A DNA stretch of 64,000 bases from Patescibacteria group bacterium (GCA_041671225.1 JBAZBY010000001.1:690060-754059), one strand, 5' to 3'; counted from the stretch's first letter, positions 7,317-40,194 are shown. Notes: generated from the sequence alone by a model not told the origin. Numbers and translations: made by a program.

Positions 7317-8741
7317 CTAGCGGACGCGGAACGGAGAGTCCACGATCCGCTGCGGATTCCCAGTCAGGCTGACCGGGATGGTCTTGACGCGGGCATCGGC
7401 GTGGAAGAATCCGCGCCCCCGGTGATTCTTGGGAGAGTCATCGAGGTAGCGAACCTCAACGCCATACTTGGCGAATCGGTCCACCTTGTAGCTCACCGCG
7501 TAACCCGGTGCGACGATGGTTTCGTCGCTCGGGTCCACGTACTGGGAGCCCTTGGCTCCCCAGACGACGAGTCGAGCGATATAGGTCTCGCTCGAGGTGT
7601 TCACCGCCTCAATGAAGAGGGGTTCAACAACACCATCGATCTGGGATGAGCGCGACGCTACCTGACGACGGGCGGGATGAGTCCGCCGCGTTTGAGTCCG
7701 CGGCGTGAAGTTCGAGGAAGGTTCCTCGTACTTCTGTCCCTGGTCGAGTTCGCGCTCAAGGTGAGCGTTCTCGCTGATGGCTTCGAGGCTGTCGGGCTCG
7801 ACAGCAACGAGGAGAGAGTCATCCGCTTCGATCACCACCGGAGGTTCGGTCGCCTTGCTGACACTACCCAGTGTCAGCGTGACCGAGCCTTTGGAAGGCG
7901 CGAGTTGCGCCTCCAAGGAGAGGACCACCCGATTGAGTCGGGCAATCTCGCTCGCGTTCGCGTGTGCCAGCGCGGAGTCGCGCTGGGCAGCGGCCGTGTT
8001 AAGATCCTGCCGGAGCAGGTCTTTCTTGGCGGCCGCCTCACTCGTGTGAGCTGCCGTAACAGGAGCCTTCTCCTTTGTCACGGCGATCTCCGCTTGGAGT
8101 GAGTCAATCTGCGCCTGCAGATTGGCGACGATTGTGGAGTCGGAAGCCGAAGCTTCCAATTCCGTCACGACGACCAGGGAGTCCGCCGGCTCCACGACTG
8201 TGGAGTCGGTAGCGGCCATGTCCGAGGACATGTCCGCATTGAGGATTTCCTCCTCCGCCGGGGCTTCATCGACCAGCGAGTAGTAGTCCTCGCTGCTCTC
8301 CCAGAACCGAAGCCCCGGGAAGAAAAGGAACGACGCCGCCGCCGCCGTGAGGAGCAGAATTGCTCCCAGGGCGACGAGCGGAGCCTTCCTGCTGCGCTTT
8401 CTGGGCGCAGCCGGCTCCTCGTCGTCCGTCTCGGGCTCTTCGTCGGTCTCGGATTCGGGCTCGTAGTCGTCCGTCGGCAGGGCCGGCGGTTCGACAGACT
8501 CAGGTTCGGAGGCGGGCGTCTCGGGTTCGGGGATGGGCTCGGGATCCGGGGCAAACACGTTGCCCTCGGCGTCGATGTACCCGTCCTCGATGAGAGCTGC
8601 GAACGCCTTGTCCGCGCTCTCATCCGAAATTTGGAACTCGTGGGCTTCGAGCGCCCACGTGATGATCGTCTGAACACTGACCTGGGCCTGGGTTCGCACC
8701 CAAGCGATCAGCATCCCAAACGTGAGTTTCTCCTCTGACAT
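7317..8741 (-). CDS. hypothetical bitopic membrane protein: small N-terminal cytoplasmic domain, acidic Pro/Glu linker, one TM helix, coiled-coil-rich extracytoplasmic region, C-terminal globular domain
   Basis: 474-aa ORF with AGGAGAATACG-ATG ribosome-binding site; GC-rich; architecture resembles anti-sigma or tethering proteins but no diagnostic motif. Confidence 0.6.
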   Translation of the reverse strand: MSEEKLTFGMLIAWVRTQAQVSVQTIITWALEAHEFQISDESADKAFAALIEDGYIDAEGNVFAPDPEPIPEPETPASEPESVEPPALPTDDYEPESETDEEPETDDEEPAAPRKRSRKAPLVALGAILLLTAAAASFLFFPGLRFWESSEDYYSLVDEAPAEEEILNADMSSDMAATDSTVVEPADSLVVVTELEASASDSTIVANLQAQIDSLQAEIAVTKEKAPVTAAHTSEAAAKKDLLRQDLNTAAAQRDSALAHANASEIARLNRVVLSLEAQLAPSKGSVTLTLGSVSKATEPPVVIEADDSLLVAVEPDSLEAISENAHLERELDQGQKYEEPSSNFTPRTQTRRTHPARRQVASRSSQIDGVVEPLFIEAVNTSSETYIARLVVWGAKGSQYVDPSDETIVAPGYAVSYKVDRFAKYGVEVRYLDDSPKNHRGRGFFHADARVKTIPVSLTGNPQRIVDSPFRVR

Positions 8742-8839
8742 CGTATTCTCCTATCTTGGGGTTCTTGGCGGCACAGAGAAAAAAGGAGGGGACCACGCGG
8801 CACGAATGCAGCGCAGCCCCCTCAGGAACGAGCCGAGGA

Positions 8840-9307
8840 TCACTCCTCGGTAAGGTCGATGGTGGGGACCTCAACCCAGGTACTATCCGACGAATCGGCT
8901 AGCGAGTTGATTCCCAAGGAACCTGCGTAGGCCGGGTCCAGCTTGTAGACCTTCCCATCATGTCCCAGCTTGTAGCGCGGGTTAGGCGCTCCATCCGGAA
9001 CGTCGACGGTAAACTGCTTCCAGTATCCGGCGCGGTCTTTTCCGACGCGCCAGAGTTTCACAGGGAACTCACCCTGTCCCGGAAGCGGGACGAAGATCAC
9101 ACGGCCGGAGTAGCAGTAGGGCATGTTGTCCCCACTGTACCACCCGTCGGTGTTTCCAACCTTCATTTCCACCGACCACTCATACTCGTTGCCGAAATCG
9201 AAGCCGTAGTCTCCCCAACCCACAGGGCCGAGGATTCTTTCACAGCCGGTCGCCCCCAGGAGGAGCGACAGAAGAGCTACCATCAGAATCAGAGATTTGG
9301 TTTTCAA
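8840..9307 (-). CDS. putative lipoprotein / exported protein (TTG start)
   Basis: signal peptide 'LILMVALLSLLLGATGC', then a Trp/Tyr/Gly-rich domain. Confidence 0.55.
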   Translation of the reverse strand: MKTKSLILMVALLSLLLGATGCERILGPVGWGDYGFDFGNEYEWSVEMKVGNTDGWYSGDNMPYCYSGRVIFVPLPGQGEFPVKLWRVGKDRAGYWKQFTVDVPDGAPNPRYKLGHDGKVYKLDPAYAGSLGINSLADSSDSTWVEVPTIDLTEE

Positions 9308-9556
9308 GGTTCTGTCCTCTTTCTAGATGGGGCGTTTCACGGCCGCTCACCTGTTCGTACTGATCCGTTATGGAGTGGGGAAGAGAAGCCTTCCTCGCAC
9401 TGGACACAATTGTCCATCAAGTGAACATATCATCATACCACTTCCTCAATATTTTGTCAAGTACCACTTGAAAAGCCTTTAAAACAATGTCACCCTGAGC
9501 CCTTCGACCACCTCAGGACATGTTTGTAGAAGGGCGGAATTGGTCTTAGAATTGTC

Positions 9557-9862
9557 ATGGTGGCGGAAAGCCACTATTTTATGCAGTATTTCGTATACAT
9601 CCTCACGAATAAGCGTAATGGAACGCTATATATTGGTGTTACGAACAATCTGGAACGACGCATGGTTGAGCATAAACAGAGGCTAGTTGAAGGTTTCTCC
9701 AAAAAATATGAATTGCACCAGCTTGTCTACTTTGAAAATACAAAGAGTATTGAAGCTGCGATATGGAGAGAGAAGTGTCTGAAGAAGTGGTACCGGAAGT
9801 GGAAAATACGGCTTATTGAGGAACAGAATCCTGAGTGGATGGATTTGGCTGAGGATTTTTGA
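9557..9862 (+). CDS. GIY-YIG nuclease superfamily protein (UPF0213/YhbQ-like)
   Basis: 'YFVYILTNKRNGTLYIGVTNNLERRMVEH' GIY-YIG motif; alternative start at 9581. Confidence 0.75.
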   Translation: MVAESHYFMQYFVYILTNKRNGTLYIGVTNNLERRMVEHKQRLVEGFSKKYELHQLVYFENTKSIEAAIWREKCLKKWYRKWKIRLIEEQNPEWMDLAEDF

Positions 9863-9866
9863 ATGT

Positions 9867-9891
9867 GGATGCCCGCCTACGCGGGCATGAC
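9867..9891. repeat. REP-like element copy B1 (reverse complement GTCATGCCCGCGTAGGCGGGCATCC)
   Basis: same GTAG loop and stem as copy A1; begins 5 nt after the GIY-YIG stop. Confidence 0.6.
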
Positions 9892-9898
9892 AAAAGGG

Positions 9899-9914
9899 TA
9901 CGCGGGCATGACAA
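9899..9914. repeat. half-copy of a REP-like element (tacgcgggcatgacaa), tandem duplicate of the B1 3' arm
   Basis: direct repeat of cgcgggcatgacaa at 9881-9894 and 9901-9914. Confidence 0.5.
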
Positions 9915-9938
9915 CGCATAATTACTTCTTCTCCTAAC

Positions 9939-9949
9939 GTCATTCCCGC
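9939..9949. repeat. REP-like half-site GTCATTCCCGC
   Basis: 5' arm only. Confidence 0.4.
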
Positions 9950-9956
9950 TGCCCTG

Positions 9957-9980
9957 TCATTCCCGCGAATGCGGGAATCC
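9957..9980. repeat. REP-like element copy B3 (GTCATTCCCGCGAATGCGGGAATCC)
   Basis: perfect 7-bp stem TTCCCGC/GCGGGAA with GAAT loop. Confidence 0.6.
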
Positions 9981-17065: not shown

Positions 17066-17256
17066 ACGGATTCAAAAAGCATGGTAAAGAGGTACCCCAT
17101 CATGATGATGCCGAAACCGACCACACCGGCAAAAACGCCTACCCGCGCTTTGAGTTGATCGTCGGTGAGATCCGGATGCTTTTTCTTCATCTCATTCCAG
17201 TATTTTTGATAGATATTCCGCTGTACATCACGAGAGCGAAAACCATCAAAGCACAA
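17062..17256 (-). pseudogene. gene fragment: duplicated internal segment of the vanX-like dipeptidase gene
   Basis: encodes 'FDGFRSRDVQRNIYQKYWNEMKKKHPDLTDDQLKARVGVFA', near-identical to residues 63-105 of the full gene at 18208-18864; it then diverges. Confidence 0.5.
17128..17250. repeat. 124-bp direct repeat, copy 1 (about 94 percent identical to 18541-18664)
   Basis: aligned by eye; about 7 mismatches. Confidence 0.8.
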
Positions 17257-17273: not shown

Positions 17274-18206
17274 CTATTCAATACGACGCCACGTATCCCT
17301 GAAAAGGGTCGTGGGAGTGTTGCCATCTTCCTGCTTCCGGAATTGCCACATCCATGACTGCGAAAAAAGAAGATCATTGAGCATTCCTATGGTCGCGCGA
17401 GGATAGCGGGCAAACTTCTTCAAGAGCACGAACCAGACCTTTGGATTCCTGGGTATTTGTTGTTTCATCCTCGCCAGCCAGTATTCTGACGTCCAATGGT
17501 AATCTTTTGTCCCATCTTCACTGTGTTCCAGTATGAAATGCCCCTGTGCACACTCCTGTAGCTGTCCGCGCATCGGATACCATCCACCAAAATCCTCCAA
17601 AAGAACTCTGGCAAAATGATACTGTGTGGAGCCGCGTTGCTGCTTGTTTGCGCCTTGGATGATGACGCTGGGGTCGGGCGGCTGATTGAAATGCAAAACG
17701 GTCGTTGCCAGATATCCTCCTGGTCTGAGTATTCGTTGGAAGATCGCAAACATCGTTTTGTAGATGTTGTTCTGCTTTCCCTGCAGCGTATCCTGCACTT
17801 GGACAAAATGTTCAATAGAGCCATTGGCAATGACTCCATCGAATCGCCCAGCCCAATCTTTTGGAATGTTCTGGTAGTTCATCAGATGCACTTCAAGGCC
17901 CTTATGCTGTGCTCGCTTTACCTGCTGCGCAGAGATCGTGATCCCCACGGCATGTGCTCCGCGCTTCTGTGCTGCTGTGAGTATTCTCCCATTGCCGCAC
18001 CCAACATCAAGGATGGTACTTCCTTTTGTGCAATGGATCTGATCCAGCAGCCATTCCGCTTGATTCGCCTGTGCTTGTATGTATGGTAGATTTGGATTTC
18101 CAAAATACTTTCCGTCCGTAAAATCTTCCACACCACCGGAAAACGCAGCATCAAAAAGATCATAACATCGAATGACCGTTCGTGATGTGACTTGGGAGGA
18201 GTCCAT
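17274..18206 (-). CDS. class I SAM-dependent methyltransferase, cyclopropane-fatty-acyl-phospholipid synthase-like
   Basis: 'ILDVGCGNGRI' motif I, 'GRFDGVIANGSIEHF'; real start at the ATG at 18206 (MDSSQ); the ORF-track N-terminal extension is read-through. Confidence 0.7.
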   Translation of the reverse strand: MDSSQVTSRTVIRCYDLFDAAFSGGVEDFTDGKYFGNPNLPYIQAQANQAEWLLDQIHCTKGSTILDVGCGNGRILTAAQKRGAHAVGITISAQQVKRAQHKGLEVHLMNYQNIPKDWAGRFDGVIANGSIEHFVQVQDTLQGKQNNIYKTMFAIFQRILRPGGYLATTVLHFNQPPDPSVIIQGANKQQRGSTQYHFARVLLEDFGGWYPMRGQLQECAQGHFILEHSEDGTKDYHWTSEYWLARMKQQIPRNPKVWFVLLKKFARYPRATIGMLNDLLFSQSWMWQFRKQEDGNTPTTLFRDTWRRIE

Positions 18207-18207
18207 A

Positions 18208-18864
18208 TTATATTCTTGGCGCCTCTTTGATCTCCCCGTACATGGCATGCGGCTTGTGCAGCGTGTATGCCCACAACTGATTGCCATAGTCAAAATGCCA
18301 CCACTCATCTTTGTCCTGTCGAAATTCTGCCGCATCCATGGCTTCGCGCAAGCGCTTGCGATTCTGACGCACTGTCTCATTAATGGAATAGTTCTCGTAG
18401 TAGAATGCCGCCGCCTCCGGTCCAAAGTGATCAAACGCTGTTCCCATGGCGAGCTCATTGCCGTTTTTGTCGGCAAGTGTGAGATCCACTGCCCCTCCTG
18501 TGCTATGAGGAGGAATGCGGCTTGGCTGGTCCGGGTCTGTGGCAAAAACACCTACCCGCGCTTTGAGCTGATCGTCAGTGAGATCCGGATGCTTTCCCTT
18601 CATCTCATTCCAGTATTTTTGATAGATATTCCGCTGTACATCACGAGAACGAAAACCATCGAAGATCTTGATGCGAAAACCGGGAAGGCAGCGTTGCACC
18701 TCCATCAGCCGCTCAACAACGCCTTGGCGCAGGAACATGCGTTCATCCTGCGAAAGCTTTTGTTGAAAGTAGGAAGGCTCCAAGACAAGAACATTCTGAT
18801 CCAAGGCGACCAAAGGCTCATTCGATTCAAGAATTGGGATGGATTCAAATGCAATAAGGGTCAT
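18208..18864 (-). CDS. D-Ala-D-Ala dipeptidase (VanX/DdpX, M15D family)
   Basis: 'IFDGFRS', 'STGGAVDLTL', 'EWWHFDYG' zinc-ligand and catalytic motifs aligned to VanX. Confidence 0.8.
   Translation of the reverse strand: MTLIAFESIPILESNEPLVALDQNVLVLEPSYFQQKLSQDERMFLRQGVVERLMEVQRCLPGFRIKIFDGFRSRDVQRNIYQKYWNEMKGKHPDLTDDQLKARVGVFATDPDQPSRIPPHSTGGAVDLTLADKNGNELAMGTAFDHFGPEAAAFYYENYSINETVRQNRKRLREAMDAAEFRQDKDEWWHFDYGNQLWAYTLHKPHAMYGEIKEAPRI
18541..18664. repeat. 124-bp direct repeat, copy 2 (inside the vanX-like coding sequence)
   Basis: see copy 1. Confidence 0.8.
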
Positions 18865-20901: not shown

Positions 20902-21146
20902 ATCCACTAATTACTATTTATTTCTTCAGTCTATCACAAAACCACCGCGTCAGCGATGATGCTTTGATGGCTCGGGGACAACTTGTCCGCCTCTGGCGGA
21001 GGGATTTATCGCCTCGCCCCGCGCCTAGCGGTGCTCGTTGTCCGGGGCAGCAGTGAACGCTGCGCCAGCTCGCGTTCCCTGATCGCTCGCCGTCGCCACG
21101 CCTTCGGCAAGTGGCTTGGCTCGCTTCTGCCCGGTTCGAATCCTCC

Positions 21147-21192
21147 ATAAACAAAAAAGGTTCTGCCGCCCGCAGACGGGCGCCAAAACCTT
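21147..21192. terminator. bidirectional hairpin flanked by an A-run and a T-run, immediately 3' of tRNA-Gln
   Basis: aaaaaaggttctgccgcccgcagacgggcgccaaaaccttttt. Confidence 0.4.
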
Positions 21193-21194
21193 TT

Positions 21195-21268
21195 TGGCTC
21201 GGGGACAGGGATTCGAACCCCAATTACTGGGACCAGAACCCAGCGTCCTACCATTAGACGATCCCCGA
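21195..21268 (-). tRNA. tRNA-Gln (anticodon CUG), CCA encoded
   Basis: manual cloverleaf: acceptor UCGGGGA/UCCCCGA with U1-A72 and G73 (Gln identity elements), D-stem GUCU/GGAC, anticodon stem CUGGG/CCCAG with loop UUCUGGU, T-arm GGGGUUCGAAUCCC. Confidence 0.8.
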
Positions 21269-21330
21269 ATAATGGATGAATGACAAAAGAGAGGCTACAC
21301 CATCTTCTACTATTGGTCAACCACCATTTC

Positions 21331-22422: not shown

Positions 22423-22591
22423 GAAGTTACAAAAGAGCCGTCGCAGATAATCAGCGCCGTCGCAAAAAAAGAAAACGTTCGCTCGTTACATTACACAGGG
22501 GATAAAACACTGGAGTTTTTCTTTGTTACACGTGCGCCGTCGCGAGGCGAGCGCCGTCGCAAAAAAAGTGGATAACCTCCTTGTTCGTGAC

Positions 22592-22665
22592 CTGGCCAGC
22601 ATTGCGTTTCCGTTCTTAACCATTTTCCGCCACCAAAATGGGTCTCTCGGAATCACACTGGCCAG
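22592..22665. repeat. 74-nt element bounded by palindromic CTGGCCAG octamers with an internal hairpin CCATTTT-ccgccacc-AAAATGG, copy a
   Basis: about 50-nt core near-identical to the copy at 23821-23896. Confidence 0.7.
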
Positions 22666-23724: not shown

Positions 23725-23820
23725 TTCACGCAGATAGAGAACAGTAGAGGCTTCGGCCTTTATTGACATAATGGGGAGTGGTGGCGCTGGTGGCTGCTAC
23801 TCCCCGACCTTTTTCGCGAT

Positions 23821-23896
23821 CTGGTCAGCGCATTGTTTCCGTTCTTAACCATTTTCCGCCACCAAAATGGGTCTCTCGGAAGCAGTTCCTGGCCAG
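23821..23896. repeat. 74-nt CTGGYCAG-bounded element, copy b
   Basis: see copy a. Confidence 0.7.
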
Positions 23897-36253: not shown

Positions 36254-36368
36254 TTTTTTCAGAGAACAACTGAATTTTCTATACTCATGGAACCAGTAAT
36301 TGGGGCGGAGGGTTCCGGACTCACTTATTTCAATACCTATCCAAGGCCATAGCGGCTTTGTTTTTTGT

Positions 36369-38440: not shown

Positions 38441-39142
38441 ATGAGTTATATTATTAGAAAAGTAAAATCAGTTTTTAAAACTATTTATTTCACTTTTTTT
38501 TATAAAGAATTATTTAAAGATTACCGCTTTACTATTAGTAAAGCTTCGACTGAAGTAGAACGAAGGGAGTTGTATCGATTAAGATACCAGGTGTACTGCG
38601 AGGAATATGGTTATATTGATAGGAATAACTGTCCAGACGGATTAGAAAAAGATGTTTATGATGAGCATTCAGATTACTTTATTATTCGTGATAGTAAAAA
38701 TAATATTGCTGCAACGGTAAGAATTATTAAGAATTCTCAAGCAGGATTTCCTCTTGAGAAAAATTTTCACCTAAATATTGAAACATCAAATCTTGATCAT
38801 GATCATTTAGTCGAGATTTCAAGACTTATAGTTGCTAGAAAGTATCGAAAAAAATTATTGCTATTGTTTCTAGTGAAGGGTTTATATTTGTATGCGATAG
38901 AACAAAAGATAACTCATGCATATTTTATAATCGATGAAAAACTCTATCCTCTTCTCTTGAAGATTAAAGTACCTGTAATAAAAATTGGAACACCGGCAAT
39001 CTATCAGGGTTTAACATTTCCATGTCTTGTTGATGTTACTGAATGGGAACGTAATGTTAGAAGAAGTAGAAGTTTTAATAGGTTTTATTATTTTGGCGGT
39101 ATGGATTTAAGCGATGACGGAAATAAGTATGAAGTTCATTAA
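38441..39142 (+). CDS. GNAT-fold N-acyltransferase of the FeeM / N-acyl amino acid synthase type
   Basis: 'RRELYRLRYQVYCEEYGYID....DGLEKDVYDEHSDYFIIRD', 'VEISRLIVARKYR' match the conserved blocks of the exosortase-associated N-acyl amino acid synthase family; very AT-rich. Confidence 0.65.
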   Translation: MSYIIRKVKSVFKTIYFTFFYKELFKDYRFTISKASTEVERRELYRLRYQVYCEEYGYIDRNNCPDGLEKDVYDEHSDYFIIRDSKNNIAATVRIIKNSQAGFPLEKNFHLNIETSNLDHDHLVEISRLIVARKYRKKLLLLFLVKGLYLYAIEQKITHAYFIIDEKLYPLLLKIKVPVIKIGTPAIYQGLTFPCLVDVTEWERNVRRSRSFNRFYYFGGMDLSDDGNKYEVH

Positions 39143-39159
39143 GATTTACGAGGGATACC

Positions 39160-40194
39160 GTGCAAGGCATTCAAGATAATTTGGGCGAGTATTTTAATTT
39201 TACGCCAGGTGTTTTTCTATATATATATATACTAACATTTATTCCATCATGGATCGCACTGATATTATCACTTCGTTATCTTAAGAGACGCAACATTCAC
39301 GCTAGTCTCTTTTGGCTCATTATCCTTTTTGGTTTATTGGCCTTGCCGTATCTGTATGTATTAGTTGGGAGCGTAGGTCTTCCTTGGCAATTTTTGAGCG
39401 CGATTATTCTCATTCCGACATACAGCTTCTCAAAAATTTTAATGAACAGAAAAACATATTCTGATACCTTCGGGGGTTCATTTTTTTGGACTTTATATGC
39501 AAAAGTGTATGATTTGTTGCTTCTTTTCAGTCCCTATAAACAACTTGTATCTCAGCTTTTAGAAGAAATAAGAGTAACTAAGCCAGCTGGGAATATTATT
39601 GATATTGGTTGCGGTACAGGAAATCTTGCGGTGTCACTTTCTGCGAATACAAACTATACTATTTTAGGAATAGATAATTCTATTGGAATGCTTACGCGTG
39701 CACAAAAAAAACATTATGATAAACAAAGGGTGCTTTTTCAAAAAGTTGATCTAGAGAATGAAAATTTTATATCTGAGATAGATGGAAAATTTGATATTGC
39801 TATTATTAGTAATGTGCTTTATACACTTGGGTCACCAATTATGGTTCTTAAGCAAATCAAAGCATTATTAAACAATGATGGCTTCTTAATTATCTCAGAA
39901 CCTAAGCAGGGTTCTAGTTTATATGCTTTATTCAAAGAGCACTATAGACAATTGTTTAGTCATTTTAGTATTAATAATCTAATCATATCTGTTAGGGATT
40001 TTTTTATTTTATTAGTTGTTGGTGTATTTAATTTTGCAATTTCTTTTAGAGCACGGGGTAGGGGGTCATATTCTTTTTTTTTACCGCACAATCTTACTCA
40101 ACTAGTTCAGGAATCTGGATTCAGTATTGAAAAAATTGGTGCGTCTTATGCAAACCAAAATATCTTACTTAAAGCAAAAAAAATACTAACATGA
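39160..40194 (+). CDS. membrane-anchored class I SAM-dependent methyltransferase
   Basis: 2-3 N-terminal TM helices, motif I 'IIDIGCGTGNLAV', 'DIAIISNVLY'; stop overlaps the histidine kinase start (ATGA). Confidence 0.7.
   Translation: MQGIQDNLGEYFNFTPGVFLYIYILTFIPSWIALILSLRYLKRRNIHASLFWLIILFGLLALPYLYVLVGSVGLPWQFLSAIILIPTYSFSKILMNRKTYSDTFGGSFFWTLYAKVYDLLLLFSPYKQLVSQLLEEIRVTKPAGNIIDIGCGTGNLAVSLSANTNYTILGIDNSIGMLTRAQKKHYDKQRVLFQKVDLENENFISEIDGKFDIAIISNVLYTLGSPIMVLKQIKALLNNDGFLIISEPKQGSSLYALFKEHYRQLFSHFSINNLIISVRDFFILLVVGVFNFAISFRARGRGSYSFFLPHNLTQLVQESGFSIEKIGASYANQNILLKAKKILT

Follow-up and report, generated by a model that had tools for sequence, protein, structure and literature searches.

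A single tRNA gene, tRNA-Gln(CUG), lies in the 64,000-nucleotide stretch of DNA from a Patescibacteria group bacterium analysed here (GCA_041671225.1, JBAZBY010000001.1:690060–754059; hereafter the window), and it is followed on the same strand by a conserved structured element whose 3′ tail repeats the last bases of the tRNA. On balance, we favour the reading that this element is a structured RNA gene derived from tRNA-Gln, and that its tail duplicates the site at which genomic islands attach. Islands in related genomes abut this sequence, at the end of either the tRNA or the element, while the window carries the element on its own, with the site unoccupied.

The 3′ end of tRNA-Gln is repeated in the window

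The tRNA gene, reported in an earlier note on this DNA, was recovered by both ARAGORN and Rfam, and ARAGORN detected neither a second tRNA nor a transfer-messenger RNA (tmRNA) in the window. The hairpin terminator described on its 3′ side, bidirectional in form, was likewise seen in the predicted fold and in a terminator scan; relatives show the same arrangement behind tRNA-Gln, and the stretch beyond this terminator in the window has a GC content of 66%. The sequence TGGCTCGGGGACA occurs twice in the same orientation as an exact 13/13 direct repeat, with its copies 227 bp apart, and on the minus strand it reads UGUCCCCGAGCCA, the final 13 nt of mature tRNA-Gln including the CCA. With one mismatch allowed, a 13-mer match would arise by chance 0.05 times in the window, and none of the shuffles gave as many as 2; the repeat is therefore not a product of chance. 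The earlier note had recognised it as a 12/13 copy at 20980–20992; that copy sits at 20969–20981, and the exact match is found one base over. A further 13-nt match to the tRNA, at 36293–36305, has no extension and was set aside as being at chance level.

The 213 bp between the repeat copies consist of the tRNA terminator and a conserved, covarying element that itself ends in the repeat, which argues against the proposal of the earlier note that the two copies are an attL/attR pair left around an island. That note had also taken an 11-mer on the plus strand, GGTTCGAATCC, for debris of a tRNA. The 11-mer is real, although it lies at 21133–21143 rather than 21136–21146, but it is the complement of the invariant 5′ motif of the element and not a tRNA remnant.

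A family of elements follows tRNA-Gln in relatives

Relatives were gathered with a degenerate tRNA-Gln pattern, which yielded 119 metagenomic loci and one GTDB genome (L005). Copies of CCCCGAG were found in sense in 11 of 110 downstream flanks, with none upstream and one in antisense. A covariance model (R1) built from 11 element copies detected the element in 18 of the 107 loci with at least 300 nt of downstream sequence, every copy lying 3′ of tRNA-Gln on the same strand. The model matches the window at 20988–21145 with 80 bits (E 1e-18), compared with 85–173 bits for 12 further full-length copies and 20–37 bits for short or divergent ones; L115 and three copies in L128, which lay outside model building, scored 85–113 bits. 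An NCBI metagenome-assembled genome (MAG) also carries the element, in three to four copies.

Members of the family follow tRNA-Gln(CUG or UUG) in Patescibacteria-type genomes and share one order of parts, which runs from 5′ to 3′ through a terminator, GGGAUUCGAAC, a helix with two hairpins, G(C/G)GACAACGA, a third hairpin and GAGGCGGAAAUCCCURUCCCCGAGC, usually followed by another terminator. The tail, AAUCCCURUCCCCGAGC, copies the 3′ end of tRNA-Gln, and its variant, CCCTAT or CCCTGT, matches that of its host tRNA in the majority of loci. The element is 88–93% identical between hosts that share 60–68% identity in the neighbouring lysS DNA, and the tRNA identity for the same pairs is 84–96%.

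In relatives the repeat is 16–18 nt long (AATCCCTRTCCCCGAGC), whereas in the window a 19-nt insertion carrying a hairpin splits the family tail, AAAUCCCU|GUCCCCGAG, so that only 13 nt remain. The earlier note had held that a 13-mer without further similarity, together with identical flanks on both sides in relatives, would speak against its view of the locus; in the window the match indeed stops there, but this is owed to the hairpin inside the tail, and in relatives the similarity continues. Other hairpins stand at the same insertion point in L057 and L115. An additional hairpin of 15–17 nt, (C)CGCCUCGNAGAGGCG(G), precedes the 5′ end of the element in L058, L101 and L128 element 2, and it is related in sequence to the hairpins that the window, L057 and L115 carry close to the 3′ end; the CCGCCUC of this 5′ hairpin could pair instead with the conserved 3′ GAGGCGG of the element.

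Database searches returned no known counterpart. Rfam 15 matched only the tRNA in the window, with nothing over the element at E up to 10, and no Rfam family matched the element in four relatives at E up to 5. An exact 24-mer of the window element was absent from IMG/VR, GTDB representative genomes and JGI metagenome contigs, implying that the window copy is confined to its own MAG and samples. Family motifs had no match in IMG/VR, a blastn search with a family member had none among phages and plasmids, and a literature search found no published description of the element. Other identities of the element were considered and set aside. ARAGORN reported neither a second tRNA nor a tmRNA in the window or in 20 loci, and the sequence 5′ of the motif is unconserved and rarely complements UCCCCGA. 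A cis-regulatory leader of the downstream gene does not fit either, as downstream genes differ among loci and a terminator usually intervenes. AT-rich, −10-like boxes occur 1–18 nt upstream of the element, at inconsistent spacing and within the terminator T-tract, and we make no claim of a promoter.

Table 1 Features of the tRNA-Gln locus and its structured element in the window
Feature	Position	Strand	Basis
tRNA-Gln(CUG) gene, CCA encoded	21195–21268	−	ARAGORN; Rfam RF00005, 57.2 bits (gathering score 29)
Repeat copy 1, last 13 nt of the tRNA-Gln gene	21195–21207	−	Exact 13-mer match
Palindromic A-tract/GC-hairpin/T-tract intrinsic terminator of the tRNA, bidirectional in form	21155–21194	.	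Fold (perfect hairpin from first 40 nt); terminator scan
Conserved structured element, ~178 nt, from the 5′ GGAUUCGAAC motif to the tRNA-like 3′ tail	20968–21145	−	Covariance model; covariation; minimum free energy (MFE) z
Invariant 5′ motif GGAUUCGAACC	21133–21143	−	Invariant alignment columns; complement is GGTTCGAATCC
Helix P1, first bases of GGAUUCGAACC with AAAUCCCU	3′ strand 21000–21007	−	Pair map
Helix P2, 21127–21132 with 21045–21050, enclosing hairpins A and B	21045–21132	−	Pair map; 5/6 pairs with compensatory changes
Hairpin A, with tandem G·A internal loop	21085–21124	−	10/11 pairs with compensatory changes
Hairpin B	21051–21081	−	10/11 pairs with compensatory changes
Conserved junction motif GGACAACGA, like the tRNA-Gln D-stem 3′ strand and anticodon-stem start	21035–21043	−	Model aligns the motif to GGACAAC of tRNA-Gln
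19-nt insertion with hairpin CCGCC-AGA-GGCGG	20981–20999	−	Unique to the window copy among aligned full-length members
Repeat copy 2, tail UGUCCCCGAGCCA, corresponding to tRNA-Gln T-stem end, acceptor 3′ strand, G73 and CCA	20968–20980	−	Identical to tRNA; attB-like site in relatives
Assembly-graph branch point at the tail/flank boundary	20966–20967	.	Two independent assemblies
Terminator-like hairpin and U-tract after the element	20935–20960	−	Terminator scan

Compensatory changes support a conserved fold, probably of an RNA

The minus strand between 20960 and 21194 folds better than all of 200 shuffles (200/200; MFE z = −4.2). Across 16 sequences aligned to the model, 92.3% of the cells were paired, compared with 71.4% in shuffles and ~37% with slid partners, and 30 of 43 pairs had changed on both sides; none of 500 shuffles reached the observed values. 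Five helices are kept, with the covariation carried by P2 and hairpins A, B and C, and the tandem G·A loop of hairpin A is invariant. There are 34 G·U pairs and 3 A·C pairs, which indicates the tRNA-sense strand as the one that folds. Together, the covariation and the G·U bias suggest that the element is a structured RNA gene and that it is transcribed.

This conservation bears on the reading of the locus as a plain integration scar, in which an island between two att repeats has been lost and the intervening DNA is decaying debris, dead T-loop fragment included. A direct repeat of the tRNA 3′ end in a single orientation would be expected of such a scar, the locus is an integration hot spot in relatives, and truly decayed short copies do exist elsewhere (L008, L076 and probably L005). 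However, the intervening sequence is conserved across hosts whose lysS DNA is only ~60–70% identical, its helices are kept through compensatory changes, which contradicts decay, and the window element still scores as a member of the family. The attR motif that islands in relatives really carry (TTCCAA...TCCCAAACTCCGAGCA) is, moreover, a different sequence and is absent from the window. We therefore consider a scar very improbable; what holds of that proposal is that integration at this locus is frequent in the lineage, and the repeat is better described as a conserved, attB-like tail.

A fold of this kind might also act as DNA, providing a strand-specific, single-stranded recombination site for island capture in the manner of integron attC or CTX-phage attP. 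The element always adjoins the recombination core, arrays of cassettes and elements occur in L128, structure is kept while sequence varies, and an excess of G·T over A·C fits single-stranded DNA as well as RNA. On the other hand, the recombinases found there belong to the large serine type, known to use short double-stranded sites, and no integron-type tyrosine integrase was found in any locus scanned. A multi-helix junction, an invariant tandem G·A loop and flanking terminators are, in addition, typical of RNA genes, and we regard a DNA site as distinctly improbable.

If the element is an RNA, its ~140-nt structured scaffold followed by 16–18 nt identical to a genomic target recalls the general layout of right-end (omega) RNAs, and it could be a guide RNA directed at the tRNA-Gln gene for a TnpB-type or similar protein encoded elsewhere. 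Yet no TnpB or IscB gene adjoins any copy, no Rfam family matched the element, a hairpin separates the would-be scaffold from the would-be guide in three members (window, L057 and L115), and such a guide would target an essential gene of its own host. To this explanation we give the least credence of all.

For the tRNA-derived RNA gene that we favour, several features point to its ancestry. The covariance model matches tRNA-Gln itself at ~21 bits, with GGGGAU(U)CG, GGACAAC and the tail in collinear order. The loops of hairpin C resemble Gln anticodon loops (UUCUGG in L021, ACUGGU in L060 and AUUGAU in L102/L057), and a 70-nt form in L076 retains a D-loop-like CUAGCGG. The element is most likely a diverged duplicate of tRNA-Gln in which the D-loop region was expanded and the T-arm degenerated, with descent from a split T-arm as the alternative.

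Islands join the chromosome at the end of the tRNA or of the element

Seven loci share the order greA–lysS–tRNA-Gln upstream of the junction. The downstream side shows no conservation: 127 open reading frames (ORFs) in 86 loci fall into 111 clusters, and the cargo includes toxin-antitoxin, restriction, Fic and RhuM genes. A comparison with relatives, which the earlier note had suggested as a way to find the variable flank, thus identifies it as the DNA 3′ of the tRNA, supporting the view of the tRNA-Gln 3′ end as a hot spot of integration in this lineage.

A large serine recombinase, encoded in antisense, adjoins the junction in L017, L072, L016, L082, L024, L088, L126 and L128; its family, which is common in Patescibacteria, has Resolvase, Recombinase and Zn_ribbon_recom domains. 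Ten ORFs beside tRNA-Gln in relatives were considered as candidate tyrosine integrases and rejected, being metabolic or defence genes (for example NgoFVII-type restriction enzyme, Fic, RhuM and HD phosphohydrolase). In three loci the recombinase ORF has no stop before the island boundary (L017 3583–4788 on the minus strand, L126 507–2045 and L128 10001–11539) and continues across the junction on the antisense strand of tRNA-Gln or the element, so that its C-terminus would differ between the integrated and the excised state. The L017 recombinase, at 401 aa, lacks the central Recombinase domain (PF07508) of its relatives of 500–540 aa; an internal deletion has probably left it inactive.

The junction between islands and the tRNA lies at ...CCCCGAG|. 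One island end, CATTGAAGAAAAATCGC..., accompanied by its antisense recombinase, follows the ...CCCCGAG of the tRNA in L072, L016, L082 and L128. In L017 this end stands behind the ...CCCCGAG of the element, and the tail of L128 element 1 is followed by the first 14 nt of the same end (CATTGAAGAAAAAT). A second flank, CCAAC..GACCGACA..TAGCCAAAA, stands after the tRNA in L017 and L054 and after the element in L071, L102 and L058. This flank, with a hairpin between CCAAC and GACCGACA, is a conserved unit of ~90 nt (L017 124–215) that may represent either an island end or a further small element. Among relatives, as distinct from the window copy, occupied and empty states with the repeat as their boundary can be compared in L121 versus L021 and in L072, L016 and L082 versus L017. 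L121 and L021 differ by 2.3 kb of cargo and a second element copy, and the pattern of single-nucleotide polymorphisms places the exchange at the tail. These junction comparisons suggest that the tail of the element can work as a second attB.

The CCA after G73 is encoded in only 34 of 121 tRNA-Gln copies (loci L005–L124), and the three bases after ...GAG of tRNA-Gln vary with whatever DNA has joined there, which is consistent with an exchange point at or just after GAG.

At their far ends the islands carry an attR-type motif, CGTTCCAAnnnTATCCCAAACTCCGAGCA, which occurs in ~30 copies downstream in sense, up to 4 per locus, with two weaker matches upstream in antisense. Behind it stand the former trailer, then the terminator and, in loci that have one, the element. 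L128 carries a tandem array that shows the whole arrangement; it begins with tRNA-Gln(UUG), a 7.5-kb recombinase island, an attR motif with terminator and element 1, and small islets, and continues with two further sets of attR motif, terminator and element (elements 2 and 3) before a terminator and a degenerate fourth copy. Within the island at tRNA-Gln(UUG), the region 8440–9969 encodes a replication protein of the rolling-circle type (REP_ORF2-G2P/RepSA matches) and, on faint Pfam matches, possibly an HNH nuclease, which suggests an integrative replicon and not a simple island.

Such arrays also lend themselves to what we see as the main rival account, in which trailer, terminator, element and tail form a miniature non-autonomous mobile element, comparable to a cis-mobilizable one and moved in trans or by accretion with neighbouring islands; it would then be no resident gene of the cell, and its structure would promote its own spread. 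Loci either have or lack the unit as a whole, with ...CCCCGAG| as its boundary, it occurs in duplicated, mosaic copies within one locus (two in L021, three to four in L128), it is patchily distributed with decayed copies, and it is more alike between hosts than their lysS DNA is. Accretion of integrase-less units is, furthermore, known for ssrA islands (PMC3146451). However, the right end of the unit is attB-like, being equal to the tRNA, and is not the attR-type motif made by known serine-recombinase islands; the block boundaries are equally explained by insertion at either of two attB copies; and the high identity could reflect tRNA-like purifying selection, given the comparable identity of the tRNAs in the same pairs. 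Neither a circular nor an attP form was observed, and the viral and plasmid collections searched did not contain the element. Weighing both sides, we think a mobile unit of this kind rather unlikely.

The window copy is an unoccupied site

The window shows the simplest arrangement, consisting of tRNA, terminator, element and terminator-like hairpin, with the site unoccupied. No homologue of the recombinase of relatives was found anywhere in its 64 kb, and a scan of the larger ORFs between 2.6 and 37.6 kb revealed no recombinase or integrase Pfam domain, so that a search for a nearby integrase, as advised in the earlier note, came back empty. Neither the attR motif nor a recognisable island was detected in the window.

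Contig ends nevertheless mark the boundary between tail and flank in two independent assemblies, from the samples behind ERZ27249449 and SRR6484324. Two MEGAHIT contigs overlap exactly over 141 nt, L001 starting at 20967 and L003 ending at 21107, and a Logan contig (k=31), L004, ends at 20996, so that its 30-nt overlap also begins at 20967. A single alternative base at 20966 accounts for both breaks, and the DNA to the right of 20967 would then join at least two left flanks in those samples, as judged from contig ends. The boundary lies one base past the tRNA-like ...GAGCCA. An island end of the form CA|TTGAAG... would share ...GAGCCAU and then diverge, giving a break exactly there. The breaks are consistent with a subpopulation in which an island is joined to the tail, although this is only a hint; an alternative path ...GUCCCCGAGCCAU|UGAAGAAAAAU... 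at 20966/20967 together with a serine recombinase would represent the putative joined form.

The gene adjacent to the locus, on a contig of 1.03 Mb, encodes an HU-like protein (NCBI WCV86_04885), an orphan with one distant relative on a 1.4-kb contig. A search for synteny by that route consequently failed, and the scan with the tRNA pattern worked instead. The atypical composition of the tRNA flanks, remarked on in the earlier note, is real (GC 0.40 for a 246-aa gene and 0.68 for the HU-like gene) but is not specific to the tRNA, as the whole window is a strong compositional mosaic with an overall GC content of ~50%. Two ORFs at 38441–40194 have 30–32% GC and a GC fraction at third codon positions (GC3) of 0.21–0.25, and GC-rich ORFs (GC3 0.7–0.8) are located at 7.3–9.3, 21.4–22.1, 24.2–24.8, 31.4–34.1 and 52.1–52.7 kb.

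Two other direct repeats were observed in the window. A 124-nt repeat, 94% identical (17128–17251 and 18541–18664), brackets a methyltransferase (CMAS-like) ORF at 17274–18551, and a 76-nt intergenic repeat, 89% identical (22579–22652 and 23808–23881), stands on either side of ORFs at 22.9–23.8 kb; Logan contigs end within both, at 18619 and 22635, respectively. A stand-alone ORF with a GIY-YIG nuclease domain (101 aa) is found on the plus strand at 9557–9862.

Discussion

Our observations can be assembled into a model in which tRNA-Gln and the element are tandem RNA genes, each with its own terminator and both with the same 3′ end. The element would comprise P1 (GGGAUU/AAUCCC), P2 with its two hairpins, the GGACAAC junction, a variable third hairpin and the tail, and because the tail keeps the tRNA 3′ end it would constitute a second copy of attB. 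Islands with large serine recombinases would join the chromosome at ...CCCCGAG| of either gene, and each insertion would displace the old trailer and terminator behind an attR motif, so that tandem arrays build up. The window copy would then be a solo element with its site unoccupied.

Several points weigh against this model and should be kept in view. On the RNA itself, the alignment used for counting pairs was fitted to the covariance model; P1 and the tail never vary, so that covariation is silent on their pairing, and the 5′ GGGGA could pair with the UCCCC of the tail instead; and a strand-specific structure in single-stranded DNA would give the same covariation and G·U signal. Outside the tail, only short stretches recall tRNA-Gln, and these could be convergent or the product of a split T-arm. 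The scan of loci was anchored on tRNA-Gln, so that any copies of the element elsewhere in the genomes would have been missed. Short decayed copies of 60–70 nt occur in L008, L076 and probably L005, and these, together with the patchy distribution of the element across ~15% of loci, argue against an essential housekeeping RNA; the multiple mosaic copies in L128 look like a spreading repeat family. Finally, as the window has no recombinase, attR motif or recognisable island, use of its own copy as attB is only putative, and any flank beginning with U would give the same assembly break.

A bolder version of the model may be considered, although we think it doubtful. The element would be a functional RNA gene kept by Patescibacteria or by the islands themselves as a landing pad that can be multiplied, each copy offering a fresh attB. 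It would amount to an integron-like capture platform made from a pseudo-tRNA, stacking defence and accessory cassettes behind an untouched tRNA, and the RNA might influence recombinase expression or the choice of site.

With a length of ~160 nt, strong covariation and no counterpart in Rfam, the element is a candidate for a structured RNA class not recognised before, in a group, the Patescibacteria, that has received little study. It would tie an RNA to the behaviour of the genome around it, as a tail that duplicates an island attachment site could explain how tandem arrays of accessory and defence genes arise behind one tRNA in very small genomes. The covariance model and the attR motif together offer a practical marker for delimiting islands in such genomes, and the natural attB/attP pairs of this sizeable serine-recombinase family may be of interest for genome engineering. 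The contribution of the window itself is more modest, since it represents an unoccupied hot spot and not an island.

Comparison with known systems

The closest system is that of the ssrA islands of Dehalococcoides (McMurdie et al. 2011, PMC3146451), tandem islands 3′ of a small RNA gene with 20-bp repeats of the tmRNA 3′ end. Those islands have a serine recombinase on the reverse strand beside attL and a conserved motif upstream of each repeat that is not alignable to ssrA; their integrase-less units are thought to move by accretion, and a pseudo-tRNA lies in the integration module (PMC3146451). The relatives described here share the reverse-strand serine recombinase at attL, the island-derived attR motif and the tandem arrays. 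They differ in that the target is tRNA-Gln and not tmRNA, and in that the repeat nearest the tRNA, rather than being a bare 20-bp repeat or attR-like, is the attB-like tail of a ~160-nt covarying element. The window, with neither island nor recombinase, holds only the target sites.

In staphylococci, the serine recombinases CcrAB insert islands of the staphylococcal cassette chromosome (SCC) type at the 3′ end of a conserved gene, rlmH (orfX), and islands can accumulate in tandem because the far end has a copy of the integration site that can be used again. In SCC arrays the island itself brings this additional site as a short repeat, whereas here the site resides in a separate RNA-like gene that exists without an island. 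The SCC system is also mentioned in the ssrA island study (PMC3146451).

As in classical att duplications at tRNA genes, the repeat is direct, runs from the T-loop region to the tRNA 3′ end in the same orientation and lies downstream. Duplications of that type, made by tyrosine integrases, are reportedly what the sublocation scheme of Williams from 2002 describes. In our loci, by contrast, no tyrosine integrase was found, the recombinases are of the serine type and the repeat is set inside a conserved structured element.

Among RNAs, the element is best compared with tmRNA and with YrlA, the bacterial Y RNA that has a tRNA-like domain. Unlike these, it mostly has no 5′ strand for a full 7-bp acceptor stem, no intact T-arm and no tag reading frame, and it is recognised by neither ARAGORN nor Rfam. 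Like them, it ends in a tRNA-like acceptor 3′ end with G73, the CCA being encoded in several copies including that of the window; a large insertion replaces part of the cloverleaf, and its GGAUUCGA motif recalls the D-loop analogue of tmRNA.

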